A stretch of DNA of 33,411 bases, from positions 1-33,411 of IMG/VR virus record IMGVR_UViG_3300037851_000560. One strand, 5' to 3'. This document shows, in pieces, positions 1 to 29,259 of the stretch. Every line of letters begins with the position of its first letter. Position 1 is the first letter of the stretch. This DNA is from a virus. Lineage: Duplodnaviria > Caudoviricetes. Position numbers and translations under genes: made by a program. A model generated the notes under the pieces. That model saw nothing but the letters and a program-made list of their open reading frames with translations, ran no database searches and was not told the DNA's origin.

Positions 1-630
1 GAGCCATGTCGTCTTGGGGGAAGGGGAAGGGGTAGGGGTAGGGGAAGGGGTAGGGGAAGGTATAGGGGAAGGAGAAGGAGAAGGAGAAGGAGAAGGGGAT
101 GGAGGGGGGGTTAGACCCCCGTCTAGGGGGGGTTTTGTCCGCGGCCTCCCGCCGAGCACACCGAACGGACCACCGAGGAAGCCGAACTGCTTGCCGAGGT
201 GCCCGCTCTTGCGACCGACATCGGCGATGTGATCGCGGCGCTCGTGGATCGTCGCTAACTCTCTCAGCACGCGGTCGTTGTGCAGCACGATCTCGTCGAG
301 CGGAATCGGCCTGCCAGACGGCTCAGCGACGAACGGCGGGGCCAGCGGCGTGCCGTCTCTGGTCTCGGCGATGAGGCTCCCGAGCGAGCAGCACGCCTCG
401 ACGCAGCGCAGCACCTCGGCCTCGCTGAAGGCTAACAGGTCGACGAGCGCATCAGCGACGATAACCCCCCCCTGCATGTAGAGCACATCGAGGGCCTCGC
501 GGTAGAAGACGCGCAGCGCGAGGTCGTTGGAGCGGATCGCGCGAGCGCGCGTGCGGCTCCCGAGGAAGTCTGCCGGTGCCCACGGGATTATGTGGACTGG
601 AGCGGACGACTGCCGTGGTATCTTGCTCAT
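1..630 (-). CDS. Phage replication initiator-like protein (DUF1376/YdaU-like), runs off the window edge
   Basis: Not in the ORF track; translated by hand from ATG at 630 (GGAGG RBS upstream): MSKIPRQSSAPVHIIPWAPADFLGS...VLHNDRVLRELATIHERR...LGGRPRTK...PSPSPSPSP. The PWxPxDFL, HNxRxxRE, GGRP and PS-linker pattern is typical of this family. Located downstream of recT. Confidence 0.65.
   Translation of the reverse strand, partial: MSKIPRQSSAPVHIIPWAPADFLGSRTRARAIRSNDLALRVFYREALDVLYMQGGVIVADALVDLLAFSEAEVLRCVEACCSLGSLIAETRDGTPLAPPFVAEPSGRPIPLDEIVLHNDRVLRELATIHERRDHIADVGRKSGHLGKQFGFLGGPFGVLGGRPRTKPPLDGGLTPPPSPSPSPSPSPSPIPSPTPSPTPTPSPSPKTTWL
14..104 (-). repeat. Hexamer low-complexity repeat encoding a (Pro-Ser/Thr)n linker
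   Basis: GAAGGA/GAAGGG/GTAGGG units on + read CCT-TCT/TCC/ACC on -, in frame with the initiator gene. Confidence 0.85.
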
Positions 631-654
631 GCCGCCGGCACCTCCATGCCGGAT

Positions 655-722
655 TGGCGCGCCCGCAAGCAGCCGGCCCCCGAGCAGCCCATCTGCCGGG
701 GGCCGGCGTCTTGTGCGCGCCA
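655..722 (-). promoter_or_regulatory. Long intergenic stem-loop between recT and the initiator gene
   Basis: TGGCGCGC (655-662) pairs with GCGCGCCA (715-722); GCCGGCCCCCG (672-682) pairs with CGGGGGCCGGC (697-707). No U-tail. Confidence 0.55.
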
Positions 723-730
723 GCGGGATG

Positions 731-1636
731 CTACTTCGTGTCGTCCTTCGACTCGACGACCGCACCGGCCGTGAACGACGCGAGCGACAGCCCGGCCGCG
801 GCCGGCGAGCCGCCGTCGATCGCCTGCTGTACCTCGGTGGGCAGCATGAGTTCCTGCCCGACGCCAGCCTCCGCGAGTTCGTCGAGCGCGATCGCCTGCT
901 GCAACGACGGGCGCTCGACCGCGCGCGGGGCGAGCTTGGCGGCCTTGCGGATGACCGTCTTGAGTGCCATCGCGTCGAAGTTCGACGCCCACACGCTGTC
1001 GGCTCCCTCGCGGCCGTACTTCTCGCGGTGCTGCTGCACCTCGCTCACCCACATGAAGGCGCGGCGGCGACCGCCGTTCTTCATCTCGATGATCGCGTAG
1101 TAGGCGACGGCCGGCCCCGGGTCGAGCGCCTCCTTCTCGGCGGCCGTGAGCTTCGCGCCCTCGACGACCTTCGCCAGCAACTCGACGGGCGGGACGTAGG
1201 GGACGTGCTTGATCGCCTCGGTGTCGCCGCGCGTGAACTCGATCGTGTCCTTCGCGTGGACGACGACCTCGGAGAGCGAGGCGATCTGCTCGCTCTCCCA
1301 CATGAGCTTGACGAGCCCCTTGTAGCCGACGACCAGCGTGGCCTCGACCGTGCCCTTGCGGCGGTTGTTGAACGGCAGGATGAACGCCTCGCCGAGGTGC
1401 CCGCCGATCTCCAGCCCGATCTGAGCCGCCGTGAAGACGGCCCCGAGGAAGGACTGCGGGTTGCACTCCAGCAGCTTCGGGTTGCGGCGGATCTCCGTCA
1501 GCACGACGCGCGAGAAGCGGTCCGCGTCCATCGAGCGCGGCAGCGCCGCGCGCAGCTGCGGCTTCAGCTTCTCCAGCGTCGCGATCATCTTCTCGTCCGG
1601 CTTCACCAGCGCCTTCTCCGTCTTCGTCTCGCTCAT
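731..1636 (-). CDS. recT: RecT-family ssDNA annealing recombinase
   Basis: Motifs LRAALPRSMDADRFSRVVLTEIRRNPKLLECNPQSFLGAV, GLE..GHLGEAFILPF, VGYKGL and W..NFDAMALKTVIR; AAGGAG RBS. Confidence 0.95.
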   Translation of the reverse strand: MSETKTEKALVKPDEKMIATLEKLKPQLRAALPRSMDADRFSRVVLTEIRRNPKLLECNPQSFLGAVFTAAQIGLEIGGHLGEAFILPFNNRRKGTVEATLVVGYKGLVKLMWESEQIASLSEVVVHAKDTIEFTRGDTEAIKHVPYVPPVELLAKVVEGAKLTAAEKEALDPGPAVAYYAIIEMKNGGRRRAFMWVSEVQQHREKYGREGADSVWASNFDAMALKTVIRKAAKLAPRAVERPSLQQAIALDELAEAGVGQELMLPTEVQQAIDGGSPAAAGLSLASFTAGAVVESKDDTK

Positions 1637-1675
1637 GTCTCTCCTTCGCGCCTCATCGGCGCATCCTCTCCCGTG

Positions 1676-2164
1676 TTATGCGTTCGCCGGCAGCGCGACC
1701 GCAGAGCGAAGCGTCTTGAGCCTTCGCCCAAACGCGCGAAGCTCGTCGGCGTAGCCGAACGCCTGCGCGAGCCGCTCGACGCGCGCGACGTGTCCCTCCA
1801 GCTGCCCGATCTCGTACAGCAGGAGGTCGCGCTGCTCGCGCTCCGACAGTTTGTGCGTCAGCCTGAACCCGGGAACCTGCGGCGGTAGGCTCGTGTCGCG
1901 CACGGCGAGCGGGACGAGCACCGTAGTCTCCCCGCGCTTGAACTCGACGCTCACCTCGTCGATGAGTTGCCGCGCCTGCTGGACACGAAAGGAGTGTCCG
2001 GCCACCGCGTCGTCCCACTCGAAGTATTCGTGCGCCGGATGCTCCGGGTTCGCAGCGCGAAGGACGATCTGCTCGGCCTTCGCGCGCCCGTCCACGTCTG
2101 CGACCTCCATGTAGGTGGCGACCTTCACCTCGTGGGTGATCCGCCGCCGCTGCTTCTTTTCCAT
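1676..2164 (-). CDS. Conserved phage protein (HxYFEWDDxxA motif); candidate accessory of the RAMP-array module
   Basis: Start reassigned to ATG 2164 (MEKKQRRR) after GAAAGGAG. Contains AANPEHPAHEYFEWDDAVAGHSFRVQQARQLI. Its RBS abuts the last array unit. Confidence 0.8.
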   Translation of the reverse strand: MEKKQRRRITHEVKVATYMEVADVDGRAKAEQIVLRAANPEHPAHEYFEWDDAVAGHSFRVQQARQLIDEVSVEFKRGETTVLVPLAVRDTSLPPQVPGFRLTHKLSEREQRDLLLYEIGQLEGHVARVERLAQAFGYADELRAFGRRLKTLRSAVALPANA

Positions 2165-2180
2165 CGACGACTCCTTTCTC

Positions 2181-2811
2181 TTGACCGCCGTGCCTTGACC
2201 CGCCCGGCCGCGCCTCTCCAGACCTTGACCGCCCCGCCGCGCCATGACTGGCCCCGATCAGGCTGCGCCCCGCCTCTCCAAACCTTGACCGCCCCGCCGC
2301 GCCTCGCGCCTGACCCGCCAGACCTTGACACATCAAGCCTCGACCGCCCCGCCGCGCCTCGACACGCCTGACCCGGACCAGACTCGCCCGGACCGCCTTG
2401 CCCGGCCTAAGCCCGCCTGACCCGGACCAAGACTCGCCCGGACCGCCTCACCCGGACTCGTCGCGCCTTCCCGATCCAAACCGCGACTCGCCTCGACCGG
2501 CATGCCTCACCCGGACTCGACACGCCGTGCCCGGCCCCGCCTGACCCTGCCCTGCCCTGACCGCCTCGCCATGACACGTCTCGCCCAGCGATCGATCCCC
2601 AGCGCAGCGACGACCGCCAGGCCCTGCCCGACCACCGACAAAGCACGCCATGGCACTCCTAGCCTAGACCGCCGCGCCGGGCCGGAACGCGACTCGCCTT
2701 ACCGCGACCCGCCAAGCCTCGACCGCCGCGACCCGCCATGACCGCCAAGCCCTGCCAGACCGAGACGCAGCGAGCCATGGCGCTCCTAGCCGTCCTCGAC
2801 CGCCTTGACCC
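2181..2811 (-). ncRNA. Non-coding array of NN-GGY pentamers delimited by GGCGGTC; putative guide-RNA array (VIPR vrRNA-like)
   Basis: + strand GACCGCC at 2183, 2227, 2287, 2342, 2391, 2441, 2495 (variant), 2559, 2612, 2667, 2721, 2740 and 2798. Spacings are 44,60,55,49,50,54,64,53,55,54,19,58, i.e. 5n+4 within 1 nt. The sequence between motifs has 5-nt periodicity. Confidence 0.75.
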
Positions 2812-3585
2812 TTACGCCGCCTTGTCGTTGAAGCCGCGACGCTGCTTCTCGTCGGCGAAGTAGCGCAACAGCTCGGCCGTCGGCGCGAGCCCGTCCCACG
2901 GCTCGGGCTCGCGCATCGCGACCTCCTGCGCCTTGCGGCCGAACTTCTGGAGCGCGACGAACTCTGGATCCTTCGGCGAGACGATCTTGAACTGGCCGAA
3001 CGACCCCTTACCCTTCTGCGGGCGGAAGTCGCCGACGCCGCGCAAGCGGCCGGCACCGACGAGGAGGTTCGCGAGCGTCGTCTCCTTCAGCATGTTGGTC
3101 GCGTAGCGGATCGTGAAGCGCGACGCCCACTGAAGGCACACCGCGCGCGTGCGCACGTCCGGCGTCCGCGCCATGTCCTGCAAGCGCACGCCGGCGCAGC
3201 AGATCAGCGGCACGCCCCACACCGGGACGATGTAGCCCTCGACCCACGTCAGGCGCGCGATCTGCGCCTTCCGCGCGTCGCCCGGCATGTCGAGCGCCAC
3301 GTCGGACAGCGCGCTCTTGAATGCCGGCGCGGGCAGCGCGAGCAGTGTCTGGCTCTTGGGGTCGTCGAACTGGTAGATCGACGAGCGAAACTCCTCGAAG
3401 GGGTCGTGCTTCAGCGTCGACTCCTTCTCGGCCTTGTTCTTCTTCGGCTTCGGCGCGAGCAGGTCGCGCAGCGCCTTGGCCGACATCGAGTTGAACAGCA
3501 GCGGCGACGTGCCGACCACGCACACGTCAGCCGATCCCTCCTCCAGCTTCACGACCTTGATCTCGGTCGACTTCTCGTTCTTCAT
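2812..3585 (-). CDS. Stand-alone Cas7/RAMP-like protein (Vipr-like)
   Basis: RAMP signatures: first strand VCVVGTSPLLFN, LALPAPAFKSAL (compare IPGSSLKGALR), and C-terminal Gly-loop GAGRLRGVGDFRPQKGKGSFGQFKIV. Its stop codon is immediately followed by the array. Confidence 0.75.
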   Translation of the reverse strand: MKNEKSTEIKVVKLEEGSADVCVVGTSPLLFNSMSAKALRDLLAPKPKKNKAEKESTLKHDPFEEFRSSIYQFDDPKSQTLLALPAPAFKSALSDVALDMPGDARKAQIARLTWVEGYIVPVWGVPLICCAGVRLQDMARTPDVRTRAVCLQWASRFTIRYATNMLKETTLANLLVGAGRLRGVGDFRPQKGKGSFGQFKIVSPKDPEFVALQKFGRKAQEVAMREPEPWDGLAPTAELLRYFADEKQRRGFNDKAA

Positions 3586-3613
3586 CGTTCCTCTCCCTCT
3601 CCCTTTGCGGCGT

Positions 3614-4504
3614 CTATCGCTTGCGCCCGAGCGCGAACTTGCACTCGGTCCAGTACTCGCAGAACTTCTCGCTGCACCACCACGCGTCCGGGTTCGCGGG
3701 CACGAACGCGCCGGCCTCGACCATGCGGATGCTCGCGTCGATCCTCGCGGCGACTGCGTTGAGATCCTCGAGCGAGCGCGTCCCCGTCTGCGTCACCGTC
3801 ACGACGCCCTGCCGCGAGTTGACGAGCGTCGTCAGGCGCACGCGGTCGGGCGGCTTCCCCGTCTGCGCCGCGCGCAGCAGGGAGTACATCGTCAACTGCT
3901 GATTGGAGCCGATCGCGTCCTCGCGGGGGCGCTTGTCGCTCGTCTTGAGGTCGTGGACGACCTCGATGGTGACGCCCCTCACGCGGCGCTCGGGCTCCTC
4001 GGCGAACGGGTCGAGGGCCGGCGCGGGCTCCTCGCCGACAAGGTCGATGATTCCGAGGATCTCGACGTCGAGCCCGGCGGGCTTGATCGTCAGCGAGCGC
4101 TCGACCGCCAGCGGGTCGACGCCGCGCGCGACCTTGCCGACGTAGTAGCCCGCCATCCTCACCGCGGTGTCCTTCTCCTCGCCGGCCACCTTCTCGACGC
4201 CGATCTCCTTCTCGGCGTCGCTCCACGCGACGCCGTACTCCTTGACCGAGTGGTCGAACTCGGTCGCAGCCACGTCCTTCGCCTCCTCGTCCGACAGCAC
4301 GGCGTCGATGTAGACCTCGCGCGGGTCGCCGCGCTCCTTGCCGGCCAGCTGCCGCACGTGCGACTTGCCGGCGACCTTGTGGACGGCGATGCCGCGCTTG
4401 GCGCGGATGCTGCTCGGCCGGAAGTCCCGCTCGATGTACTTGCGGCGGAAGCGCTCGCCGCACTGCTGCGCGGTGTACAGCATCGAGTTCGACCAGCGCC
4501 TCAT
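3614..4504 (-). CDS. PD-(D/E)XK exonuclease, Cas4/AddB/RecB-like, probable 4Fe-4S cluster
   Basis: Start at ATG 4504 after GGAGG. Motifs SNSML..C, GIAVH, ILGIIDL, VHDLKTS, QLTMY and C-terminal WCSEKFCEYWTEC (1+3 Cys arrangement). Confidence 0.85.
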   Translation of the reverse strand: MRRWSNSMLYTAQQCGERFRRKYIERDFRPSSIRAKRGIAVHKVAGKSHVRQLAGKERGDPREVYIDAVLSDEEAKDVAATEFDHSVKEYGVAWSDAEKEIGVEKVAGEEKDTAVRMAGYYVGKVARGVDPLAVERSLTIKPAGLDVEILGIIDLVGEEPAPALDPFAEEPERRVRGVTIEVVHDLKTSDKRPREDAIGSNQQLTMYSLLRAAQTGKPPDRVRLTTLVNSRQGVVTVTQTGTRSLEDLNAVAARIDASIRMVEAGAFVPANPDAWWCSEKFCEYWTECKFALGRKR

Positions 4505-4698
4505 GGTGCCTCCCATAGCGCCTCGGTGCTGCGGCGCTCGATCTCGTGGTAGTCGTCGTCGGTGATTGCGGTGGCGCAGGGCGCGCCGACGTTGAGCATC
4601 GTCGTCAGCGCGATGCGCCGCGCCTCCTCGATGGTGTCGGCGAACGCGACCGTCACCGGCGGATAGCGGCCCTCTTCGAGCCGCACGCGCAGTCTCAT
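4501..4698 (-). CDS. Hypothetical protein (65 aa)
   Basis: MRLRVRLEEG...; ATGA overlaps with both neighbours. Confidence 0.6.
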   Translation of the reverse strand: MRLRVRLEEGRYPPVTVAFADTIEEARRIALTTMLNVGAPCATAITDDDYHEIERRSTEALWEAP

Positions 4699-4913
4699 GG
4701 GCAGTCCTCCCCGTCGATAATCCGGCAGCTCTCCCAATCAATGTCGGCCGGATCGCAGCCGGCATCGCGGACGATCCTCTCAGCGAACCCACGCACGTCT
4801 TCTCCGTAGGGGTGCGCGAACATGAAGCACTCCGCGCCGTCGTCCATCTGGATGACGTGCCCGCAGCAGCCAGTCTCGCAGCCATACGCGGTGTGATAGA
4901 CGACGACTCTCAT
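4695..4913 (-). CDS. Hypothetical Cys-rich protein (72 aa)
   Basis: MRVVVYHTAYGCETGCCGH...; ATGA coupling. Confidence 0.65.
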   Translation of the reverse strand: MRVVVYHTAYGCETGCCGHVIQMDDGAECFMFAHPYGEDVRGFAERIVRDAGCDPADIDWESCRIIDGEDCP

Positions 4914-5176
4914 GCCCTTGCTCCGGGCGCGCACTCGGGGCCGTAGGTCACCTTCCCGTTGCGCCCGAGAAGCACGCGCTGCACCGTGAAGTCGCCGCTC
5001 ATCGGAAGCGCGGCGAGGTCGCCGCAGTAGAGCGAGCAGACGAGCCCTGACTCCTTGAGCCGGATGAGCCAGCAGGGGCGGTCGGTGCCGTCGAACAGCC
5101 GGCGCAGGAACCACCTCTCGATCGCGTCCAGCGGCGGCGGCTTGTGCGGGTTGACGGGGCGGCAGTCGGGCGGCAT
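4910..5176 (-). CDS. Hypothetical protein (88 aa)
   Basis: MPPDCRPVNP...; TGATG coupling to the HTH gene. Confidence 0.55.
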   Translation of the reverse strand: MPPDCRPVNPHKPPPLDAIERWFLRRLFDGTDRPCWLIRLKESGLVCSLYCGDLAALPMSGDFTVQRVLLGRNGKVTYGPECAPGARA

Positions 5177-5424
5177 CAGCGCAGCTTCACAGTGCGCTTC
5201 AGCAGCCCGTCGCGCTCTTTGCTCGGAACGCGCTGCGAGAGCAGAACGGCGAGCCCGTCCACGCGGTGCGCCGGCATGGCCCGCAAGCCCGTCTCCCACA
5301 GGCAGATCGTCGTTGGGTTGACCCCAAGGCGCGCCGCCATCTGTTCCTGCGTGAGCCTGAAGAAACTTCGGACGCGGCGAAGCAGCGCCCCGCGTTCCGT
5401 CTGTGGCTTCTTGAGCTTCGGCAT
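5176..5424 (-). CDS. XRE/Cro-like helix-turn-helix regulator
   Basis: LRRVRSFFRLTQEQMAARLGVNPTTICLWETG matches the HTH_3 pattern; GGAGGAG RBS. Confidence 0.85.
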   Translation of the reverse strand: MPKLKKPQTERGALLRRVRSFFRLTQEQMAARLGVNPTTICLWETGLRAMPAHRVDGLAVLLSQRVPSKERDGLLKRTVKLR

Positions 5425-5443
5425 CTCTCTCTCCTCCCAAACG

Positions 5444-5492
5444 AAAAAAGGGGAGTGAGGCGAGCCGCAGTTGGCTCGCCTCCGCTCCCCTT
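5444..5492 (-). terminator. Rho-independent terminator
   Basis: On -: AAGGGGAGCGGAGGCGAGCC-loop-GGCTCGCCTCACTCCCC followed by TTTTTT, just after the stop at 5501. Confidence 0.8.
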
Positions 5493-5500
5493 GTCAGGTT

Positions 5501-6496
5501 CTACTTCAGCACGACCCGGCGCTGCTGTTCGGTCACCAGCGGCTCGATGATCTCGCGCAGCGAGTCCATCTCGGCGCGCACGCGCTCTGCGGCGCGCTTC
5601 TCCGTGCGCAGCACCTCGGCGTCCACGCCGTTGAGCACGGCGAGCGCCTTGTCGGTGAGCGCCGCGAGTTCCTCGTCGCCTGTGATGTCCTGCAGGCGGT
5701 AGGTCCGCAGGAAGTCGGTCATCTTGTCGAGCGACGCCTGCCGCAGCGTCCTGCGCCGGCCGTCCTCGCCCGGCTTGAGCACGTCGGCCAGCGTGGCCAC
5801 GAACTGCTGGAGCGTCTCGCGGTAGGTCAGGCGGATCGCGTCGAAGTACGCGGCCCACGCCGAGCGCGCCTTCGCGCGCTCGGCCTCGAAGAGCGCGGGG
5901 TTCAGCTTGCGCAGCCGCGTCGGCACGTCGAACTGGAGCCAGCAGTAGCGCGGCATGACCGCCTCGCGGATGCTCGCGAGCGTCGGATAGTCCCGCGGGT
6001 CGAACAGGCCGAGCGGCGTCAGGCGGGCGCGCTCCTCTTCGATGATCGCGTCCCAGCGCGCCTCCAGCGAGTCGAGCAGCGCCGCAATCGCCTCTGACGC
6101 CCGCTTGATCTCGCTCTCGACCCACTCGATGCGGGCAGCGCTGAAGAGGTGCATCCCCCCCTTGAGGAAGGCCTTCGGCTGCGCCGTTCGCCGGATGAGT
6201 GCTCGCGTGGCGATGATCTGCTGGACGATCTGCTGGACCTCGGCGACCTTCAGCAGGTCTTTCGAGATGCGGATCTCGTCGGCCCCGTCGGCCGCGGCCT
6301 CGACCATCTCCTCGGCTGTCTCTGGCGCGCGCTTCTCGCGTTCGCGCTCCTCCTCGATGAGCGCCCCGGCCACCTTCTCGACCTTCTCGCCGCGCACTCG
6401 CGCGTTGCGCTTGATCGAGCCGATGGTGAGGTTGAGCACGAACGAGTTCTCGGTGATCTGCTGCGCCTTCTCGTCGTCCGTCAGCGTCGTGGTCAT
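5501..6496 (-). CDS. DUF3150-like helical protein
   Basis: Start at ATG 6496 (MTTTLTDDEK). Motifs FVLNLTIG, ISKDLL and LGLFDPRDYPT; next to the AAA/DUF1257/DUF2997-like genes. Confidence 0.6.
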   Translation of the reverse strand: MTTTLTDDEKAQQITENSFVLNLTIGSIKRNARVRGEKVEKVAGALIEEEREREKRAPETAEEMVEAAADGADEIRISKDLLKVAEVQQIVQQIIATRALIRRTAQPKAFLKGGMHLFSAARIEWVESEIKRASEAIAALLDSLEARWDAIIEEERARLTPLGLFDPRDYPTLASIREAVMPRYCWLQFDVPTRLRKLNPALFEAERAKARSAWAAYFDAIRLTYRETLQQFVATLADVLKPGEDGRRRTLRQASLDKMTDFLRTYRLQDITGDEELAALTDKALAVLNGVDAEVLRTEKRAAERVRAEMDSLREIIEPLVTEQQRRVVLK

Positions 6497-7816: not shown

Positions 7817-9303
7817 GACTCGCGGCGCACGCGACGCTCGCCGCCCTCCGGCGCGCTGCGCGTCGTGTAGGTGCCCGGGCGGTTCGCCGAGAGGAAGCGG
7901 CCCTCGGCGAGCGTGCGCAGCGCCTCGATGCTGCTCGGGTCGCTCTGGCTGACGGGCACGACGTAGGACGCGGCCTCGGCGAGCGTCACGTCGAGGCGCG
8001 AGGCGATGCGGCAGCAGTTGCGGATCTCGGCACCCGTCCAGCCCTCGTCGAAGTTGACGCCGGCCGGCGAGACGCTCAGGCCGTGCGCTGCGATCTGAAG
8101 CTTCCAGATCGCCGCTCGCTCCTGCGCGTCGGGGAGGTCGAAGTACCAGATGCCGTTCGTGAAGCGGCGGCGCAGCTCGGGCGGGAGCGAGTCGAGGCGG
8201 TTGCAGGTGGCGACGACGAGCGCGCGGCCCGCGGCCACGCCGTTCGCGACCTTGAACGCCTGCCGGATCGCGCTCTCGGAGTCGCCGACGTAGCGACCCT
8301 TCATCGCGCCGAAGTCGAACTGGAGCAGCGGCAGCTGCGCGCTGACGGCCAGCGCGCGAGCGAACATCGTCTTGCCGCATCCCGGGGGCGAGACGCAGAT
8401 CAGGCCGTCGTGCCCGTTGTCCTCCATCTCGCGCAGGAGCACGCCGAGGTAGTCGGCCGAGACACCCGAGGAGTCGCCCCCGGAGCCCGAGCCGGCCATG
8501 TACTTCTCGATCTCGTCGACGAGGTAGAGGGCGCGGGGCGGCTGCTTGCCGCTGACGACGCGCCGGCCGTAGGTGCAGATCGCGGCGTTGCCGCCGATGT
8601 CGTCGAGCGAAGGACCCGTGCGCTGAAGGCTGAGCCCCTTCGTCTGGCTGATCTGCGTCCGCTTGCGCTCCCACAGCGAGTCGAGATCGAGCCCCTCCTT
8701 CCGCATCGACATCGCGGTCACCTGCTCGCAGCCGAAGATGCTCAGCCCGCGCGTCGCGTCGACCGCGCGGTCGAGCACGTCGCCGGGCACCTTGAGGCCG
8801 TTCGCCGAGCAGAGCTTCTCGATCTTCTCGCGCAGCGCCGCGTCGGTCGGGATGGGGTCGTCGACGACCACCACGTCCTGCTGAAGCTCGGCGGGCAGGT
8901 CGAAGGCGGGGCCGAGCAGGACGAGCGTGCGGCCCGTCAGCTTGTTCGTGTCGCGCAGCGCCAGCACCGCGGTCGAGAAGAACGCGTCCTGCACGAAGCG
9001 GTGTGCGTTGAGCGCGAAGAACTGCGAGTCGTCGGGCAGCCGGCCCGCGATCTCAAGGGCCGTCTGCGGGTTCGCCGTCTCCATCGAGCGCGTCGCGTCG
9101 TCGGCCCACTTCGACCGGCAGAACGTCTTCGCCGCCTCGTTGAGCGGGATGATCCCGCGCACGGCGTCCCACGCGAGCTTCGGCGCGCCGTTCGTCGTCT
9201 TGCAGATCGCGGCGACCGCGGCCTGCTGGTCCGTCGTCGTCACCGCGAGGAGGGGCGTACCCGCGTCTCGCGCGTCCATCACGACATCTGTCAGCGTCCT
9301 CAT
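7813..9303 (-). CDS. Ycf46-like AAA+ ATPase
   Basis: Degenerate N-terminal domain (LPAELQQDVVVVDDPIP), Walker A SPPGCGKT, YVGDSE, ATCN..LPPELRRRF and WTGAEI. Confidence 0.85.
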   Translation of the reverse strand: MRTLTDVVMDARDAGTPLLAVTTTDQQAAVAAICKTTNGAPKLAWDAVRGIIPLNEAAKTFCRSKWADDATRSMETANPQTALEIAGRLPDDSQFFALNAHRFVQDAFFSTAVLALRDTNKLTGRTLVLLGPAFDLPAELQQDVVVVDDPIPTDAALREKIEKLCSANGLKVPGDVLDRAVDATRGLSIFGCEQVTAMSMRKEGLDLDSLWERKRTQISQTKGLSLQRTGPSLDDIGGNAAICTYGRRVVSGKQPPRALYLVDEIEKYMAGSGSGGDSSGVSADYLGVLLREMEDNGHDGLICVSPPGCGKTMFARALAVSAQLPLLQFDFGAMKGRYVGDSESAIRQAFKVANGVAAGRALVVATCNRLDSLPPELRRRFTNGIWYFDLPDAQERAAIWKLQIAAHGLSVSPAGVNFDEGWTGAEIRNCCRIASRLDVTLAEAASYVVPVSQSDPSSIEALRTLAEGRFLSANRPGTYTTRSAPEGGERRVRRES

Positions 9304-9304
9304 G

Positions 9305-9814
9305 TCAGGCCTCCTTGTCGTCGTCCTTGATCGTCTCTGCCGCCTTCGCGATGACCCGCTCCGTCGCCTCGCGCACCTTCGCGTCGGCCTTGTCCATCTC
9401 CTGCTTCCTGAGCGCCGCAGCGCTGCCCATCAAGTCGGCGAGCGCCTGCAGCGCCTTCTGCATGTCCTCCGCGTCCCCGCTCGCCAGCGCCGCCTCGACG
9501 CGCTTCGCGGCCACGCGCAGGTCGGGGGGCATCATGTCGAGGATCTCCTCGGGCGTCCCGGAGTTCGTCGTCCGCTCCCCGGAGTTCATCGCGATCACCT
9601 GCATCTTGGCGTCGAGGATGTCGATGAGCTTGTGCAGGATGGGGATCGGCAGCTTGGCGACGCGGGCGTTCATGATCAGGTGCAGCGCGAGCCCACCCAA
9701 GCCCTCGGCGGGCATGATCCGGCCCTGCTTCACGATGCGCCAGAACGGCCCTTGCAGCTCCTGCGCTATCTGGATCATCTGCTCGTAGTTCGGTTCGAAC
9801 TCGTCCTTCGCCAT
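9305..9814 (-). CDS. Hypothetical helical protein
   Basis: Start MAKDEF after GGAGGCCTGAC; phage-like codon usage. Confidence 0.7.
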   Translation of the reverse strand: MAKDEFEPNYEQMIQIAQELQGPFWRIVKQGRIMPAEGLGGLALHLIMNARVAKLPIPILHKLIDILDAKMQVIAMNSGERTTNSGTPEEILDMMPPDLRVAAKRVEAALASGDAEDMQKALQALADLMGSAAALRKQEMDKADAKVREATERVIAKAAETIKDDDKEA

Positions 9815-9815
9815 G

Positions 9816-10136
9816 TCAGGCCTCCCTGCCATCGAGCCAGAGCTTGTACTCGTCGAGGATCCACGCCTTCAGCCTGCGCGTGCGCGCGCCGTACTCCGCG
9901 CCCTCGGCGTCGGCGCGGAGGAAGTCGAAGTAGCGGCGGTCGGTGCCGGCCCCGAAGGCGCGCGCCGGCAGCGTGACGTAGAGGTCGCCGTCGGGCGCGC
10001 GCCAGATCGAGAAGCCGGCGAGCTTGAAGCCGTGGATCGGCGAGCCGGGCGCAGCGAAGTGCATCTCGGCTTCGGCCAGCATCCGCTCGGGCTTCGTGCT
10101 GTCGTTCGGGATGAAGGTCATTGCCACCGTCTTCAT
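9816..10136 (-). CDS. SpoVG-like nucleic-acid-binding protein
   Basis: FKLAGFSIWRAPDGDLYVTLPAR...YFDFL...LKAWILDEY resembles the SpoVG pattern. Confidence 0.6.
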   Translation of the reverse strand: MKTVAMTFIPNDSTKPERMLAEAEMHFAAPGSPIHGFKLAGFSIWRAPDGDLYVTLPARAFGAGTDRRYFDFLRADAEGAEYGARTRRLKAWILDEYKLWLDGREA

Positions 10137-11166: not shown

Positions 11167-11316
11167 CTACGCGCGGGGCGCGGCGGGCTTCGGCGGGATC
11201 GGGCGCAGCCAGAAGGCCGTGCCGCTCGCCGCGTGCTTGATCTTGACCGTCGGGTGGGGCTCGTGCGGACCGAGGATGAGCTTCCCGCAGATCGGGCAGT
11301 GGTTCTTCTTCGCCAT
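11167..11316 (-). CDS. Small hypothetical protein (49 aa, CxxC)
   Basis: Not in the ORF track; MAKKNHCPICGKLILGPHEPHPTVKIKH... after GGAGGTCTGAC. Confidence 0.55.
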   Translation of the reverse strand: MAKKNHCPICGKLILGPHEPHPTVKIKHAASGTAFWLRPIPPKPAAPRA

Positions 11317-11317
11317 G

Positions 11318-11554
11318 TCAGACCTCCTTGCGCTCGCAGGCCCCGCACGCGCAGTCGCGGGGGTTCGCCGTCTTGTCCTTGATCGCCGGGCAGCGCTGCA
11401 CCGTGCCCGACCCCTTGCACGCCTTGTAGGCGAGCGCCGGCTTGCGCGCCCACAGGTTGATCGAGCCGTGCTGCTGGAGCGTGCCGTCGTCGAGGATGTC
11501 GATCCGGCGGCGGCAGCGGCGGCAGCGGGTCTGCGTCTTCGGCGTCGTGCTCAT
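11318..11554 (-). CDS. Cys-rich hypothetical protein
   Basis: MSTTPKTQTRCRRC...H...C...CACGAC; TGATG coupling. Confidence 0.6.
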   Translation of the reverse strand: MSTTPKTQTRCRRCRRRIDILDDGTLQQHGSINLWARKPALAYKACKGSGTVQRCPAIKDKTANPRDCACGACERKEV

Positions 11555-11862
11555 CACAGCCTCCGCAGCAGGTGGTTGTACGCGCCGGAGCAGGCCGCGT
11601 AGCCGTCCATGCTGTCGAAGAAGCCCTCGATGCTCGTCACGCCCGGCCCCTTGCGGGCTTCGATGAGCGCGAGGTCGACGAGCTTGATCTTGAGGTTGCT
11701 CAGCAGGCGCAAGGCGTCGAGCGCGCTCTCCGTCTCCCACTCGACCCGAGCGTGGCTTGCGCGGGCGTGGCAGTCGGGGCAGCGGCCGCGGTCGTCGTCG
11801 AGGTTGAACAGCGGGGTGGCACGGGGCTTCCCGCAGTCGACGCAGTTGGTGTCGTTCGTCAT
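11554..11862 (-). CDS. Hypothetical zinc-finger protein
   Basis: MTNDTNCVDC...CPDC after GGAGGCCTGAC. Confidence 0.65.
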   Translation of the reverse strand: MTNDTNCVDCGKPRATPLFNLDDDRGRCPDCHARASHARVEWETESALDALRLLSNLKIKLVDLALIEARKGPGVTSIEGFFDSMDGYAACSGAYNHLLRRL

Positions 11863-11863
11863 G

Positions 11864-12139
11864 TCAGGCCTCCTCCTCGTTCTTCGGCTCGTTCGGCTCG
11901 TCATAGAAGCCCTCGGCGGCGAGCCGCTTCGTCTCGGCGCGCGTCTCGGCCAGCACCAGCGATCCGTCTTCGACCGCCTCTTCGATGCAGTCCATTTCGA
12001 CTTCGATCGCGGCGACGATCAGGTTGCGCGCGATCGGCTTCGCGAGGTCGTACTCTTCGAGGGCGATCGGCTCGCCATCCATGTCTTCGACGATCCGCAG
12101 CGTGCCGTCGGGCAGGACGATCGCGAGCTTCAGTTTCAT
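11864..12139 (-). CDS. Acidic hypothetical protein
   Basis: 91 aa, strongly D/E-rich; RBS motif present. Confidence 0.7.
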   Translation of the reverse strand: MKLKLAIVLPDGTLRIVEDMDGEPIALEEYDLAKPIARNLIVAAIEVEMDCIEEAVEDGSLVLAETRAETKRLAAEGFYDEPNEPKNEEEA

Positions 12140-12140
12140 G

Positions 12141-12335
12141 TCAGGCCTCCTTCGCGGGGCGCAGCGTCACGCCGAGTCGGAACGCGAGCGCAAGCGCTGC
12201 GACCATCGCCGCGTGCGGGCTGCGGCAGTAGTCGGTGCAGGCGGCCTGCGTCGGCGTCTTGAACTCGACGTACCAGCCGCCGAGCGCGCGGGCTTCTGGA
12301 TCACGGTCGCGGAGCAACTTGGCTTCAGTGGTCAT
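12141..12335 (-). CDS. Hypothetical protein
   Basis: AAGGAGAG RBS; ends in KEA-stop within the recurrent start motif. Confidence 0.6.
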   Translation of the reverse strand: MTTEAKLLRDRDPEARALGGWYVEFKTPTQAACTDYCRSPHAAMVAALALAFRLGVTLRPAKEA

Positions 12336-20675: not shown

Positions 20676-20772
20676 TCTCCCTCGCTGACGACCGCCGGCA
20701 GCGCGAGGCGAGAGCGGCGGGCCACCGCCAAGGATGCTCAGCAGCGCGCGCCGCGCGAGCGCGGGAGGTCCC

Positions 20773-23244
20773 GTGGCCAACTCTTGGCTCACCCGAGCCA
20801 TCGACCGTTTCCGCAAGCCAGCACCCGCTCCCAAGCCTCCATCGAACGAGATCGAAGTCGTCTCGACATTCGTCGCGGGGCGACCCGTGCCGCAGGAGGA
20901 TTGGGATCCGCGCAAGCTCGTCGACGAGGGCTACAGGCGCAACGTCGTCGTCTACTGCTGCGTCAACGAGATCGCCTCTTCGGCCGCAGCGCCGCGCGTG
21001 TACCTGCGCGACCGCAAATCGCAGGAGGAGGTCGAAGAGCACCCGCTGCTCGACCTGCTCGCGCGCCCCGCGCCGGGGCTGTCGTGGTACGAGTTGGTCG
21101 AGACGCTGCTCATCCACCAGCAGACGATCGGCGAGGGCTACCTCCATAAGGGGCGCACGGGGAGCGGCGAGATCGTCGAGTTGAAGCCGGCACGTCCCGA
21201 TCGCATCCAGCCCGTGCCCGACAAGCAGGGCAACGTCCTGTACTACGAGTACCGCATCGAGGGCCAGTCGCCGCAGCGCATCGAGACGGAAGACCTCGCG
21301 CTGTTCAAGCTTCCCGACCCGATCAACGACTTCCACGGCCTGTCGCCCCTCGCGGTCGCGGGGATCTACGGCGACATCGACGCCTCTGCCGCGATATACC
21401 TCCGCGACTTCTTCGCGAACGGCGCGATGCCGATGGGGCTGCTCAAGTTCAAGGTGCCCGCCGTGCGGCGCGAGGATCGGCTGCGCGTGCAGCAGGAGTG
21501 GGCCGAGCAGTACGGCGGCGGCGAGATCACACCGCAGCGCGGGAGCCGCTGGCACAACGTCGGCGTCCTCGGCGGCGACGTGGAGTATCAGGCGATCGCG
21601 AGCGAACCCGCGCAGCTGCGCCTCGACGCCGTGTGGGGCATGACCGAGAGCCGCCTGTGCGCGACGTTCGGCGTGCCGCCGCAGTTGGTGCAGGCGCGCA
21701 TCGGCTTGCAGTACTCGACCTACGCGAACATGCGCGAGGCGCGGCGCTCCTTCTGGACGGAGACGCTCGCGCCGATCTACCGACGCCTCGGCGACGGCAT
21801 GACGCGCACGATCGTTGCCGAGGTCGACGAGAACCTCGAACTGGTCTTCGACCTCGAATCGATCCCCGAGCTTCAGGAGGATCTCAACCAGCGTGCCGAG
21901 CGCGCGACGAAGCTGTTCCTCGGCGGCGTCGCGTCGTTCAACGAGGCGCGTCTGCTGTCGGATCTCGAGGAATCGAAGAGCGACTTCTACGCCTTCCCGG
22001 GCACCGTGACGATGGTGCCGAAGGAGGACGTCGAGAGCGGCAAGTACTTCAAGGAGGCGGCCGACGCCAAGGCCGCAGCGCAGGCCGCGCTGGCGAAGGG
22101 CGCGAAGGACGCCGACGACGGCGGCGAGGGGAAGCCGCCGTTCGGCGGCAAGCCAGACGACGACGACGACGATCAGCAGGCCCTCGGGGAGGGGGCGCGC
22201 GGCCTCCCTTTCGAGGTGCTCGGGCTCGGCTCGCTGCCACCGGAGTCCGAAGCGGAGATCATGCGGGCGGCGACGACGTTGGAGACTGGTTTTTCCGCAG
22301 CGGTGCATGACGCGATAGCGGGGAGCGACGTCGAGGCGCTCGCTGCGGCGATCGAGCGCGGGGACTGGCGCGCGGCCGAGAAGGCGATCGACGTGACCAC
22401 CTACGTCCAGCGTTACGGTGCCGCGCTCGACGAGCACCTTCGTCGCGAGGCGGCCAACGCCATGCAGTTGCACCTGCGTCATCACGAGATCGTGCCGCGC
22501 GAGAAGCACCGCGACGGCTGGGTCACCATCAAGGGCCGGCCCGTTTACATCGGCGACAAGGGGCGCGGCGGTGGCGGGGGCGGCGACGCGCCACGCGCTG
22601 GCGGTGCGTCGCCGGCAGACCTTGAGCCAGCCAGCGGCGCGCCGATGGAACTGAAGCCCTTCTCCTCCTTCGATCCGAAGCTGGGAGGGGCCGATCGCAT
22701 GGCCGCCACCATCGCGTTCACGAAGGCCGTCTACGACGACCCCGCCGTGAAGATCCCGAAGCTCGCGTGGGACGGCGTGAAGGGGCTACAGGTCCGTCTC
22801 GAAGAGGCGTACAAGCCCGGCGTGACGGGCTACTACCAGCCCGACAAGGAGCGCGTCAACATCATCGCGCAGAAGAAGGGGCACCTTTCGCGCAACACGC
22901 CGATTCACGAGCTTGGGCACCACGTCCACATGGCGAAGCTGACGGACGCGGCGCACAACGAGTGGGCAGAGCTCTCGAATGGCGGGAAGGCCTGCAAGAT
23001 CTCCAACTACGGGCGCACGAACACCGGCGAGCACTTCGCCGAGGCCTTCCGCAACTACGCCGACACCGCCGAGCCGAAAGGCAAGCCCGGATTCCTCGCG
23101 CCGCGCGAGTGGCTGAAGAAGCAGGAGCCCGCGACGTACTCGTTCTTCGAGCGGCTCTATTCGGACCCGTCCATGTGGCACGCCAAGGGCAAGCGTGCGC
23201 CTCTGGCCGACGCGAACAAGCGCTACCACGGGAGCAAGGTGTGA
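20773..23244 (+). CDS. HK97-type portal protein with C-terminal zincin metallopeptidase extension
   Basis: GTG start after GGAGG. Portal motifs VYCCVNEIA, HPLLDLLARP, GLSPL, FFANGAMPMG, FGVPPQLV and NEAR. Tail carries HELGHHVH...SNYGRTNTGEHFAEAF. Confidence 0.88.
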   Translation: MANSWLTRAIDRFRKPAPAPKPPSNEIEVVSTFVAGRPVPQEDWDPRKLVDEGYRRNVVVYCCVNEIASSAAAPRVYLRDRKSQEEVEEHPLLDLLARPAPGLSWYELVETLLIHQQTIGEGYLHKGRTGSGEIVELKPARPDRIQPVPDKQGNVLYYEYRIEGQSPQRIETEDLALFKLPDPINDFHGLSPLAVAGIYGDIDASAAIYLRDFFANGAMPMGLLKFKVPAVRREDRLRVQQEWAEQYGGGEITPQRGSRWHNVGVLGGDVEYQAIASEPAQLRLDAVWGMTESRLCATFGVPPQLVQARIGLQYSTYANMREARRSFWTETLAPIYRRLGDGMTRTIVAEVDENLELVFDLESIPELQEDLNQRAERATKLFLGGVASFNEARLLSDLEESKSDFYAFPGTVTMVPKEDVESGKYFKEAADAKAAAQAALAKGAKDADDGGEGKPPFGGKPDDDDDDQQALGEGARGLPFEVLGLGSLPPESEAEIMRAATTLETGFSAAVHDAIAGSDVEALAAAIERGDWRAAEKAIDVTTYVQRYGAALDEHLRREAANAMQLHLRHHEIVPREKHRDGWVTIKGRPVYIGDKGRGGGGGGDAPRAGGASPADLEPASGAPMELKPFSSFDPKLGGADRMAATIAFTKAVYDDPAVKIPKLAWDGVKGLQVRLEEAYKPGVTGYYQPDKERVNIIAQKKGHLSRNTPIHELGHHVHMAKLTDAAHNEWAELSNGGKACKISNYGRTNTGEHFAEAFRNYADTAEPKGKPGFLAPREWLKKQEPATYSFFERLYSDPSMWHAKGKRAPLADANKRYHGSKV

Positions 23245-23459
23245 CCCTCGAAGAGTTCGTCACCGAAGTCCGCAGCGGGAACGTCTCCGTCGAGACGGGC
23301 GGCATGATCGACGGAGACATGGCGACGTGGATCGAGACGCTCGGGACCAACGACGCGGAGGCTGTCGCCGTCGAGGCCTTCGCTCGCGGCGTCATCCCAG
23401 CCGACATGGCGCTCGATGACGCGGTCGCGCGGATCGAGGCGCTGCTGGCGGCAGCATGA
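23241..23459 (+). CDS. Small acidic protein (possible immunity protein)
   Basis: 72 aa, coupled at both ends (GTGA, ATGA). Confidence 0.6.
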   Translation: MTLEEFVTEVRSGNVSVETGGMIDGDMATWIETLGTNDAEAVAVEAFARGVIPADMALDDAVARIEALLAAA

Positions 23460-26400
23460 CGATCGAGGAGCAGGCCCTCCGGCCGAAGTGGCTCGACGCC
23501 ATCGCCTCGCGCGTGAAGCTGGAGATGCGCCGGCTCGACAAGCAGGTGCGCTCCGTCGTGCGCGAGCAGATCCTCAAGGTGATCAGCGGGAAGGCAGAGA
23601 GCATTACCCCGACCGCGATCCTCAACCACATCGGGCTCACCGAGAGCCAGATGGCGACCGTCGAGCGCGCGCGCACGCGCCTGCTCGCCGAAGGCAAGCT
23701 CAAGGGCAAGGCGCTGGAGAAGGATCTCGACAAGCTCCGAGCCAAGCTCCTGCGCGAGCGCGCGAGCCTCATCGCAGAGCATGAGACGCGCATGGCGCAC
23801 GCGCTCGGCCAGCGTGCGGCGTGGGAAAAACTCTTCGCCGACAAGAAGCTGGCGGGCGGGAAGAGGCACTGGCACAAGCTCTGGATCGCCTCCGAGGATG
23901 AGCGAACGTGTGGCGTGTGCATGGATCTCGATGGGCAGGAGGTTCCCGTCGACAGCCTCTTCGACGACTCGTACTACTCGCCCCCGGAGCCGCACCCGCG
24001 GTGCCGCTGCTCCGTTGCGCTGGTGGAGACGACGCCGGGCTGGCGCTCGGAGAAGAGCGCGCTCGTCGACGACGACGTGGAGGAGTTCGCGGGCAAGAAC
24101 ATCGCTGGCGGACACTGGATCACGAAGGACGGCCGAAAGATCCTCATCGGCGGGGACGCCGCCGCGGGCCGCTCCGCTGGCGGCGGCGGCGGCTCGCTGT
24201 CCGACATCACAGAGGGGCCGCCAGAGGCTCCGATCGACCCCGAGAAGGAAGGCTGGAAGATCGTCAAGAAGGGGAAGATCGGCGGGCACTCCGAAGCCAA
24301 CATCTGGGAGGACAAGAACGGCGACCTCTGGTACGTCAAGCGCTCCGACGACTGGACCCAGCAGGCGAACGAGGTCATCGCCGGGAAGCTGTACGCGCTC
24401 GCCGGCATCCCCCACACCGAGACGCGGGCCGCAGTCGTCGGCGGCTCGCCTTGGCTCGCGTCGAAGATGATCTCGCACGCGGGCGACCCGCACCCGAACG
24501 CTGTCGGGCTGCGCGAGGGCTTCGCGACCGACGCGTGGCTGGGCAATTGGGACGTCGCCGGCCTGCACGGCGAGAACACCGTGCTCGGGCCGAAGATGAT
24601 GGCGACGCGCGTCGAGTCTGGCGGCGCTCTGCTCTATCGCGGGATGCAGGGCCTGAAGACCGACACGCAGTTCACCGGGAAGGTGAATGAGATCGACGTC
24701 TTCCGCGGCGGCATCTCGGGCGGTGGCAAGACGAACGACACGGCGACCTACCTCTTCCGCGGCGTCACAGAGGCCGACATCGCGAAGGGCATCCGCGACC
24801 ACGTGCTCGCGATCACGCCGGCCGAGATCTCGAAGGTGGTCACCAAGTACGGCAGCAACATGCCTCCGAACCTGCAGAGCAAAATCATCAACACGCTCAC
24901 GGCCCGGCAGGAGGATCTCAAGGCCAGACTCCCCGACCTCGATGCCGCTGCGAAGGCCGCCGCCAAGTCGGGCGCACCGCCGCCGCCGACCGGGAAGCTG
25001 TTCAACGTGACGCATCAGGTCGTCGCTGGCAACGGGAAAATCCCGCAGGCTCCGCAGCCGGTCGTGGCGACCGCAGCGCAGACGAAGGCGATGAGCGGCG
25101 GCAACTGGGGGATCTCCAACTGGAGCGACCCCAATCATCCGCGCCCCGACGAATTCGGAGCGCCGACCAACCCGAGCAGCATCGCCTACGCCGAAGCCAT
25201 GAAGCGCGCGCAGTCGCGCATCACAAGCTGGAAGCATTGCGCGCAGTCGGAGGGCGCGAAGAAGCTCCGCGTTGCCGCGATCGAGGAGCTTGGCGCGCAG
25301 GGCATGGTCGGAGTCGGGAACACGCCCAAGCCGGCGATCGACTTCACGGACAGGCAGGCCGTGCGCGTGCTCTACATGAAGACGCAGGCCGACCTCGCGG
25401 CCGCAGGCTTCACCAACGACGACCGGCTCGTCCTTGCTCGCGGCCTGAGCTTCCACGGTCCGTCGGGGTCGATGCTCACTGGCCCGGAGGCAAAAGCGAA
25501 GTACACGACGCCGATGGCGCTGGAGGGCTTCTCGACGAACGAGGGCACGGCCGTCGCGTTCAACAACTCGCTGGTGATCAAGAAGGCCGTCCCGCCGTCG
25601 AGCATCCTGTTCTCGTGGCACACCAGCGTCGGCTCGACTGGCGGCTATGCCGGCGAGAAGGAGTACTTCGTCCTGCATGGCCCGAAGTTCGAGCCGCTCG
25701 GCTCGACCTACGAGGGCAAGATCGCAGGCGGCCCGGCGGCGAAGGCCGCCCCGAAGAAGCCGAGCACGTGGTCTGGCCAAGGGCCGCTCGACCTCTCGAA
25801 GCTCGCGGCTGACGCGGGCTTCACCTACAAGGGGCACCAGACCGTCCCGAAGGTCGAGAACACGTCCGTGCTTGGCGGCACGATCAAGGTGCCGAAGCCG
25901 CAGAAGACGTACTCGGGCTCCGGTGGGGCCGACGCGTTCATCGCGAAGTACGGCGGCGAGAAGTACTCGAAGGATCAGTTGAAGGTCGCCTTCGACGTGC
26001 TCGCGAAGGGCGGGACCGTCGCCGAGGCCGCGGCGGCCGGTGCGATCAACAAGAACTCGATGCACGGGATGATTCACCTCGTGAAGCTGAAGTACGGCGG
26101 GGTGAACATCGGCGGCACGACGGTGACCACGAAGGCCGGCTCTGGCGGCGGCGAGACGACGTACACGCCGACGGCCGCGCAGATCTCCTCGGCCGCTGCG
26201 GGGACGCATGCCAGCGCTCCGTTCTCTGGCGTGGCCGCGTCGCCGCCGCCGCCGAAACCGTCGTACCCCGAGGCGCAGCCGCTGAAGCCAGCCGACGCCG
26301 ACTGGTTCTTCGGCAAGGCCGAGGCCGGCATGAGTGTCGGCGGGACCGTCTTCGACAAGGACGTGTACCTGACGAAGGCTGGGACCTACTTCAAGGTTCC

Positions 26401-26716
26401 GGCCGGCCAGCCCGCGCCGACGGGGGCCAAGGTGTCGATGCACCCGCAGAGCGTCGCGAAGTCCATCGCTCTGCAGCAGGCCGGCCAGCCCGAGCCGCCG
26501 AAGACGACGCCGCCGCCAGCGCCGAGCGGCAAGCTGGGAATCGAGGCCTACATGAAGAAGTACGGCAGCACCAAGTACTCGCCCGCGCAGATTCAGGCGC
26601 TGCTGTCGCTGAAGGCCTCGGGCATGAGCGACGCGGCCGTCGCCAAGCAGCTCGGCATCCCGGTGAACACGGTGCACGGCATCTCGTGGAAGGCGAAGAA
26701 CAAGGGGTACATCTGA
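23456..26716 (+). CDS. MuF (head morphogenesis) protein with kinase-like, ART-like and HTH domains
   Basis: MuF motifs RASLIAEHE, KLWIASEDERTCGVC and PPEPHPRCRC. Then YVK..NE..DAWLGNWD, LARGL..FST..EKEY and two HTH-like repeats. Confidence 0.85.
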   Translation: MTIEEQALRPKWLDAIASRVKLEMRRLDKQVRSVVREQILKVISGKAESITPTAILNHIGLTESQMATVERARTRLLAEGKLKGKALEKDLDKLRAKLLRERASLIAEHETRMAHALGQRAAWEKLFADKKLAGGKRHWHKLWIASEDERTCGVCMDLDGQEVPVDSLFDDSYYSPPEPHPRCRCSVALVETTPGWRSEKSALVDDDVEEFAGKNIAGGHWITKDGRKILIGGDAAAGRSAGGGGGSLSDITEGPPEAPIDPEKEGWKIVKKGKIGGHSEANIWEDKNGDLWYVKRSDDWTQQANEVIAGKLYALAGIPHTETRAAVVGGSPWLASKMISHAGDPHPNAVGLREGFATDAWLGNWDVAGLHGENTVLGPKMMATRVESGGALLYRGMQGLKTDTQFTGKVNEIDVFRGGISGGGKTNDTATYLFRGVTEADIAKGIRDHVLAITPAEISKVVTKYGSNMPPNLQSKIINTLTARQEDLKARLPDLDAAAKAAAKSGAPPPPTGKLFNVTHQVVAGNGKIPQAPQPVVATAAQTKAMSGGNWGISNWSDPNHPRPDEFGAPTNPSSIAYAEAMKRAQSRITSWKHCAQSEGAKKLRVAAIEELGAQGMVGVGNTPKPAIDFTDRQAVRVLYMKTQADLAAAGFTNDDRLVLARGLSFHGPSGSMLTGPEAKAKYTTPMALEGFSTNEGTAVAFNNSLVIKKAVPPSSILFSWHTSVGSTGGYAGEKEYFVLHGPKFEPLGSTYEGKIAGGPAAKAAPKKPSTWSGQGPLDLSKLAADAGFTYKGHQTVPKVENTSVLGGTIKVPKPQKTYSGSGGADAFIAKYGGEKYSKDQLKVAFDVLAKGGTVAEAAAAGAINKNSMHGMIHLVKLKYGGVNIGGTTVTTKAGSGGGETTYTPTAAQISSAAAGTHASAPFSGVAASPPPPKPSYPEAQPLKPADADWFFGKAEAGMSVGGTVFDKDVYLTKAGTYFKVPAGQPAPTGAKVSMHPQSVAKSIALQQAGQPEPPKTTPPPAPSGKLGIEAYMKKYGSTKYSPAQIQALLSLKASGMSDAAVAKQLGIPVNTVHGISWKAKNKGYI

Positions 26717-27977: not shown

Positions 27978-28040
27978 AAACAGCGCTGCGCCCGCTGCTA
28001 GAGTCTGGCGCGTCCTTGGGAGAGGGAGAGGGGGAAGGGC

Positions 28041-29198: not shown

Positions 29199-29259
29199 TG
29201 CGCCTCGGAGATGGGGGCGGATCGCCCGCCCCCGACACCGAGGAGCGCTGGAGGCACCC

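Follow-up and report, generated by a model that had tools for sequence, protein, structure and literature searches.

A staggered VIPR locus in a phage contig, with one guide predicted to match host glutamine synthetase III

VIPR systems combine a vipr gene, a vap gene and guide arrays made of GGY and NN, which are read by a one-base skip rule (10.64898/2026.04.26.720920). The same source also describes staggered arrays with a one-base overlap, and reports that internal degeneracy is frequent. How does a RAMP protein read such a guide? For the type II VIPR of Escherichia phage SUSP1, each protomer covers a single five-base repeat, burying the GGY and exposing the NN, and the R-loop extends from the 3' end. 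The bases of GGY are held by residues R138, D177 and R179, and D177A and R138A each abolish silencing (10.64898/2026.04.26.720927). And what are the guides aimed at? The targets reported so far comprise satellites and prophages, further VIPRs and also REP decoys (10.64898/2026.04.26.720920; 10.64898/2026.10.15.759431). In one case a satellite recombinase is silenced via an 18-bp footprint on invariant codon positions; host REP decoys are described as well, as is host DNA serving as a decoy in F5 satellites (10.64898/2026.10.15.759431). Non-canonical repeat units exist too, according to an excerpt of a further preprint (10.64898/2026.10.21.760802).

The window analysed here, a phage record of 33,411 bases taken over its whole length and estimated to be 34% complete, carries a locus which is almost certainly a member of this family. 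An earlier note made from the letters alone had likened the layout to VIPR and allowed that it may be a new member rather than a new class. This likeness holds (10.64898/2026.04.26.720920), and the fold of the protein, its kinship to SUSP1 Vipr and the succession of vipr, array and vap bear out the assignment. With staggered VIPRs, as that preprint describes them, the locus shares a lone phage RAMP with one vap, five-base GGY/NN repeats, consecutive units with a one-base slip and long in-register units of 9-13 steps. At the joint of the window each guide's end would mark the start of the next, with an overlap of one base, which is what defines a staggered array going by the legend of fig. S18. 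Type II VIPRs (SUSP1, P. fulva) end each guide with a structured tail, whereas the window units stand back to back and tail-less; the eight units that were folded scored z -0.9 to 0.8 against shuffles, with no structured tail found. The absence of cas genes and CRISPR repeats, also claimed in the earlier note, holds for the window, which at the stated completeness is a partial genome: no Cas family was matched among 17 ORFs (Pfam) and 22 ORFs (NCBIfam), Rfam gave zero matches at gathering score, and the 20 largest direct-repeat families contain no CRISPR-like array.

Table 1. Coordinates of the VIPR locus, its guide units and the flanking recombination genes
Feature	Position	Strand	Remarks
vipr, 257-aa stand-alone RAMP	2812..3585	-	RRM core with thumb hairpin (residues ~119-162) and G-loop (~183-197)
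Staggered vrRNA array	2185..2809	-	About 127 repeat steps; 12 units; 4-nt joint GGCG/GTC
Guide unit 3	2670..2723	-	54 nt; 10 variable pairs; GSIII match; function predicted
Guide unit 6	2498..2561	-	64 nt; run of seven strict GGY five-mers; credible target not found
Guide unit 7	2444..2497	-	54 nt; in-frame matches to phage VapE helicase and DUF4406 gene
Guide unit 9	2345..2393	-	49 nt; 20 scattered viral matches
Guide unit 12	2186..2229	-	44 nt; last unit; sequence shared with unit 11; compared with the window and 80 loci
vap, 162-aa accessory protein	1676..2164	-	SPLHxxFEWD motif conserved; ribosome-binding site at about 2171-2177
PD-(D/E)XK exonuclease	3614..4504	-	Upstream of vipr, also in the closest relative L246; Pfam
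RecT annealase	731..1636	-	Downstream of vap; Pfam and NCBIfam

All three RAMP motifs from which the protein was first recognised are present in the vipr frame, and the proposed check by structure prediction and Foldseek returned a Cas7-group RAMP fold. The AlphaFold2 model (pLDDT 91.8) resembles Csm3, Cmr and type VII Cas7 chains by Foldseek and VIA. The best Foldseek matches are Csm3-type chains (E 1.5e-5), from a library that ends on 8 April 2026 and so predates the Vipr papers; by VIA (Z 9.7, rmsd 4.4, 150 aligned) ranks 1-30 are all CRISPR chains and the first non-CRISPR chain comes at rank 31. These Cas7-group RAMPs of class 1 CRISPR (Csm3, Cmr4, type VII Cas7) have the same RRM/thumb/G-loop fold (Z 8-10), but they are 6-17% identical to the window Vipr and take six-base steps, against five in the VIPR model, and no CRISPR array or cas genes were found in the record. 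No Cas family matches the window Vipr, and among 119 aligned members one matches Cas5, weakly. By sequence, SUSP1 Vipr is the top PDB entry (E 0.032 for the single sequence, 9.7e-6 with a profile) and the only one with E below 1 in the profile search. An hhalign comparison with it gives 95.8% over 51 columns and E 7.5e-9, for residues 146-201 only, that is, from thumb to G-loop.

Are the bases of the repeat read in the same way? SUSP1 Vipr (PDB 36pp) is 195 aa long, against 257 aa here, and has a homologous thumb and G-loop with the same GGY-reading residues, as far as the accessible description goes (10.64898/2026.10.15.759431). Window R147, D186, F187 and R188 align with SUSP1 R138, D177, W178 and R179; SUSP1 H17 falls on window N32 through a low-scoring alignment only. 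A word search gave 293 Vipr relatives among 3116 candidates, and 119 of the 120 listed were aligned, one 380-aa sequence being left out. R147, G185 and R188 are kept in 119/119 of these sequences and D186 in 117/119; on this alignment the GGY-reading residues are retained in the window Vipr. The binding of one subunit per 5 nt, with GGY bound and NN displayed, which the earlier note had put forward, is shown for SUSP1 (10.64898/2026.04.26.720927) and would apply here by kinship. SUSP1 W178, the stacking residue of the G-loop, is Phe at the same position in the window (187); it is W in 71, F in 36, Y in 6 and G in 6 of the 119 aligned sequences. Variation at this residue (W, F, Y, even G) was noted at loci L017, L059, L061, L067 and L074, and no link between stacking residue and repeat degeneracy is evident in the table of relatives.

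The vipr-vap intergenic stretch is 647 nt long (2165-2811), and its periodic part, read as five-mers, runs from 2809 to 2185 (625 nt). It contains 93 GGY, with 35 GGY pairs spaced 5 nt, whereas 1000 dinucleotide shuffles average 5.8 such pairs (sd 2.5, max 15); the lag-5 identity is 0.456 against 0.331 in shuffles (max 0.397). The 5-nt GGY periodicity is confined to the coding strand and, among the top 15 windows of 300 nt listed outside the array on both strands, none has more than four GGY pairs. The repeat is degenerate: 56% of 106 five-mers start with GGY and 26% with GTC. Twelve units of 19-64 nt are parted at the recurring joint by a one-base phase slip, their length being exactly 5n+4 in six, one base longer in four and one base shorter in two; the six that deviate are units 1, 4, 5, 8, 10 and 11. 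Unit 6 has seven consecutive strict GGY/YNNGG five-mers, which exceeds the minimum of four tandem units taken to define a VIPR, where a guide is expected to have about 9-16. The earlier reading of a 630-bp periodic NN-GGY array directly after vipr was therefore correct in period and place, but the array is 625 nt long, degenerate and built of 12 staggered units, and that reading had overlooked the units, the one-base skip code and a decodable target. Sequence is duplicated within the array: units 8 and 9 share copies, and so do units 10-12. At locus L002 several whole guide units are exactly duplicated in the array after vap (compare units 8/9 and 11/12 here); these repeats hint that arrays may grow by duplication followed by change. 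Loci L016, L038 and L047 have a second five-base array opposite the vipr strand (74, 23 and 20 steps), possibly further guide cassettes.

How general is this layout? IMG/VR contains 504 stretches with a Vipr relative, the best 80 of which were fetched. The two neighbours expected of homologues, a downstream 5-nt array and a conserved co-oriented gene, recur in these best 80 of 504: an array of at least 12 steps is found in 78/80 loci (3/81 in the opposite-strand control), and a tblastn match to vap (E at most 0.01) lies just 3' of vipr in 80/80. The array mostly follows vap (69/80), whereas in the window and in 9/80 loci it sits between the two genes; the commonest joint of the relatives is GGCA/GGC, against GGCG/GTC here. 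Their unit length peaks at 9-12 steps and their strict GGY share is 32-100%. The closest among the relatives listed, L246 (69% identical), has the order exonuclease-vipr-array-vap and the joint of the window but different guides, as expected of a programmable RNA. The joint motif clusters on a quick tree (63 rows; 19 changes against 27.3 when shuffled), but co-evolution of joint and tree is not claimed, as labels are common to kin and L246 is the only sequence with which the window forms a firm group. A host search found no Vipr in five genomes; among 201 genomes of one phylum there was one Vipr relative of 46% and one weak match. Distant relatives (26-28% identity, annotated as hypothetical) occur in the Gordonia phages Pipp, ODay, Ecliptus and UmaThurman (H1-H5), cultured actinobacteriophages which offer possible test systems.

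Less can be said about Vap. We place its start at 2164, against 2245 for the ORF caller. The protein matches phrog_15946 (E 8.6e-15), a family of unknown function, and its Atlas neighbours are all unnamed viral proteins. A word search gave no homolog beyond Vap itself; with Pfam nothing scored above cut-off for the window protein and no family was common to more than two of 61 members. Matches in the PDB are of the generic helical kind, and neither Pfam nor the PDB points to a recognisable nuclease family. No likeness was detectable to the gene behind SUSP1 vipr, taken as vap1 by position. The minus-strand arm of the window carries early genes (AAA ATPase, HTH regulator, PD-(D/E)XK exonuclease, RecT) and the plus-strand arm terminase, portal and MuF protein, so that the VIPR locus, between the exonuclease and RecT genes, lies inside the recombination gene block. 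Neither a sigma-70 promoter nor a minus-strand terminator was found within 500-6000.

What could the guides recognise? Targets were scanned with the one-base skip (read two, skip one), holding out the first pair; at collection scale unit 3 was scanned by this skip only. Pairs 2-10 of unit 3 spell codon positions one and two of nine consecutive codons in glutamine synthetase III (GSIII), LGANEAPPA within the motif RLGANEAPPA, at 18/18 bases. In GTDB genomes there are at least 120 matches, and 120/120 of those listed are the GSIII motif on the sense strand, the skip falling on the wobble base. IMG/VR gave two, one in GSIII and one perfect match outside it (L086). Variation in the motif was followed in 36 GSIII genes chosen by family membership; 34 of these had not been selected for the match, and one locus below cut-off was excluded. 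Eight residues never vary among the nine, and the other is kept in 35/36; at eight codons the bases in positions one and two are 97-100% constant, the commonest third base reaching 39-86%. The leucine codon begins with TT in 8 genes and CT in 28, the CT type giving 17/18 Watson-Crick matches. We take the LGANEAPPA loop to be the glutamate flap of glutamine synthetases. In the plant enzyme the glutamate flap is described as essential, in the part of the source consulted (PMC3975887).

Could such a match arise by chance? For a random nine-pair guide of the clade's kind, the probability of spelling a word common to at least 20% of GSIII is 5e-9, and for a word common to at least 5% it is 6.5e-8 (72 reading frames). 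Assuming 10,000 such families and ten tries, the family-wise chance is roughly 0.0005-0.007. A perfect GSIII match was seen in 0/365 of the relatives' guides and 0/365 shuffles, and none of the relatives' guides is a second guide on the motif. The held-out first pair of unit 3 matches GSIII at 0/2 bases, its constant 3' joint has no match to GSIII either, and in none of the matches of unit 3 or unit 7 does the held-out pair agree. Across 498 units the first pair shows more bias than the inner pairs do (3.57 vs 3.94 bits), and this bias, together with the growth of the SUSP1 R-loop from the 3' end in the accessible description, makes a 5' mismatch tolerable, if short of proven. When 330 of the 365 relatives' guides were compared with their own loci, the one-base skip exceeded neither other skips nor shuffles. 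Target searches of the kind made for unit 3 see conserved targets only, which biases the picture. GSIII is present in 13/101 and 23/101 genomes of two sampled phyla. On balance the match of unit 3 to GSIII probably exceeds chance. That the guide functionally silences a host GSIII gene is a serious but tentative possibility. We found nothing in the literature on a VIPR guide against glutamine synthetase, though published supplementary target lists may contain such; the word 'glutamine' is absent from 10.64898/2026.04.26.720920 and 10.64898/2026.10.15.759431.

Of the four in-register guides scanned, unit 3 alone has a convergent target. Pairs 2-10 of unit 7 have in-frame matches to two phage genes, one for a VapE helicase (DAFSKAERE) and the other a DUF4406 gene; the counts are no higher than chance, and both genes are candidate targets only. 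The nine-residue VapE match is kept in 1/18 VapE relatives, and since the site varies in this way VapE remains only a candidate; the site comes after the Walker B motif. The single viral match of unit 6, which lies a short way upstream of a portal gene and reaches 19/24 when the held-out pairs are counted, is taken as chance, as is a 12/12 match of an L246 guide, found at one locus of 123 without recurrence. No self-target was detected in the window, five in-register units under four skip rules scoring within shuffles; against the 80 loci the same units exceeded five shuffles in 4/20 tests, by 1-2 bases.

Is the GSIII gene then the true target? An ordinary VIPR directed at rival phages or mobile elements, with the GSIII match due to chance and the true target of unit 3 elsewhere or a few bases different, is unlikely but deserves serious weight. 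Published targets are all mobile elements or host REP decoys; the window guide differs from these in matching a chromosomal metabolic gene. The 18-base patterns of units 3, 6 and 7 each draw 1-2 viral matches in IMG/VR regardless, the held-out pair of unit 3 is mismatched, and unit 7 is in frame with two phage genes. Chance matches, however, scatter, as do the 20 viral matches of unit 9 in IMG/VR, which have no gene in common, whereas all the listed GTDB matches of unit 3 converge on one motif, and the calibration stays below 0.01. Somewhat less probable is a real GSIII guide aimed at a GSIII copy on a rival phage or plasmid, or acquired from the host without selection or as a decoy. Nine moraphages encode a glutamine synthetase, its type not stated in the passage available (PMC12619734), full-length GSIII occurs in 8/50,697 phage and 12/72,556 plasmid records, and F5 satellites do use host DNA as a decoy. 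But the eight phage records are unannotated gut contigs, and at 6/6 IMG/VR loci close to L085 (the scan reaches close relatives only) GSIII lies at most 1.1 kb from a contig end, which suggests host flank; this position, with the rarity of GSIII in phage and plasmid collections, makes a chromosomal target likelier than a mobile one. As a decoy, a gene present in a single copy would serve badly; DNA acquired at random would rarely land in frame on a motif that is invariant; and the motif of a mobile copy is common to any host copy too.

Two further explanations concern the system itself. Part of the array may be decayed, given six units with a one-base indel and strict GGY in only 56% of five-mers, and the duplications listed above point the same way; a decaying VIPR, with an intact protein but an array no longer giving working guides, is nevertheless very improbable, as degeneracy is common in the relatives and also in SUSP1's expressed guides, both genes are intact, vipr as well as vap, and the array has five long in-register units. 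That the gene is a CRISPR Cas7/Csm3 orphan beside a simple repeat is scarcely credible: the top fold matches are Csm3 and Cmr chains, though from the library that predates the Vipr papers, while no Cas family matches, the sequence match goes to Vipr, and the gene comes with an array in 78, and with vap in 80, of the best 80 of 504 loci.

We lean towards a VIPR locus whose array is cut to guides which the RAMP coats and which silence matching DNA, one of them predicted to be directed at host GSIII. The locus would be co-transcribed with the early recombination genes, and cleavage of the array RNA, whether by Vipr, by Vap or by a host RNase, would take place at the 4-nt joints. Vipr would then coat the short guide RNAs, one subunit per five bases, burying GGY and leaving NN to pair so that every third target base is skipped; an R-loop triplex would form and transcription be blocked, the steps from the burial of GGY onwards being taken from the SUSP1 papers. 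We infer silencing rather than cutting. GTC-type repeats would be tolerated, and the first five-mer of a unit may serve as scaffold, not as guide. Unit 3 would thereby silence host glnN, its U at the leucine codon pairing with both leucine codon families via G-U wobble; as it is the wobble base that is skipped, synonymous change would be no escape. Repression of glnN might shift glutamate or ammonium pools, or slow the host, in infection or lysogeny, the benefit to the phage being speculation. It is a real possibility, which we put forward with reserve, that a phage turns off host GSIII by a wobble-proof guide, VIPR then rewiring nitrogen metabolism beyond its role as an inter-viral weapon. 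The system itself is explained by the 2026 preprints and the target is the new element: if true, a guide fixed on codons that do not vary in a core nitrogen enzyme would amount to phage RNA-guided control of host metabolism. The tail-less staggered array is also material for working out guide cutting, which the VIPR preprints leave open in the parts at hand.

Other features of the window are worth recording. A 25-nt box (direct-repeat family D7) occurs in five copies, at 9297-9321, 9808-9832, 11310-11334, 11856-11880 and 12133-12157, which are 76-88% identical to the reference copy and span the start codons of early minus-strand genes together with their ribosome-binding sites; such boxes may be markers of modular gene cassettes. 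The portal protein (20734-23244, 836 aa) has a C-terminal metallopeptidase-like domain (PF07737, E 2e-6, barely above cut-off). The MuF-like head protein (23456-26716, 1086 aa) has long unassigned middle regions and a C-terminal HTH; by eye it resembles a polyvalent protein, with kinase-like and ADP-ribosyltransferase-like parts. Finally, the stretch 27216-30491, within the structural gene block, holds two weak glycosyltransferase-2 matches (below cut-off) and more enzyme-like ORFs, which suggests virion or DNA modification.
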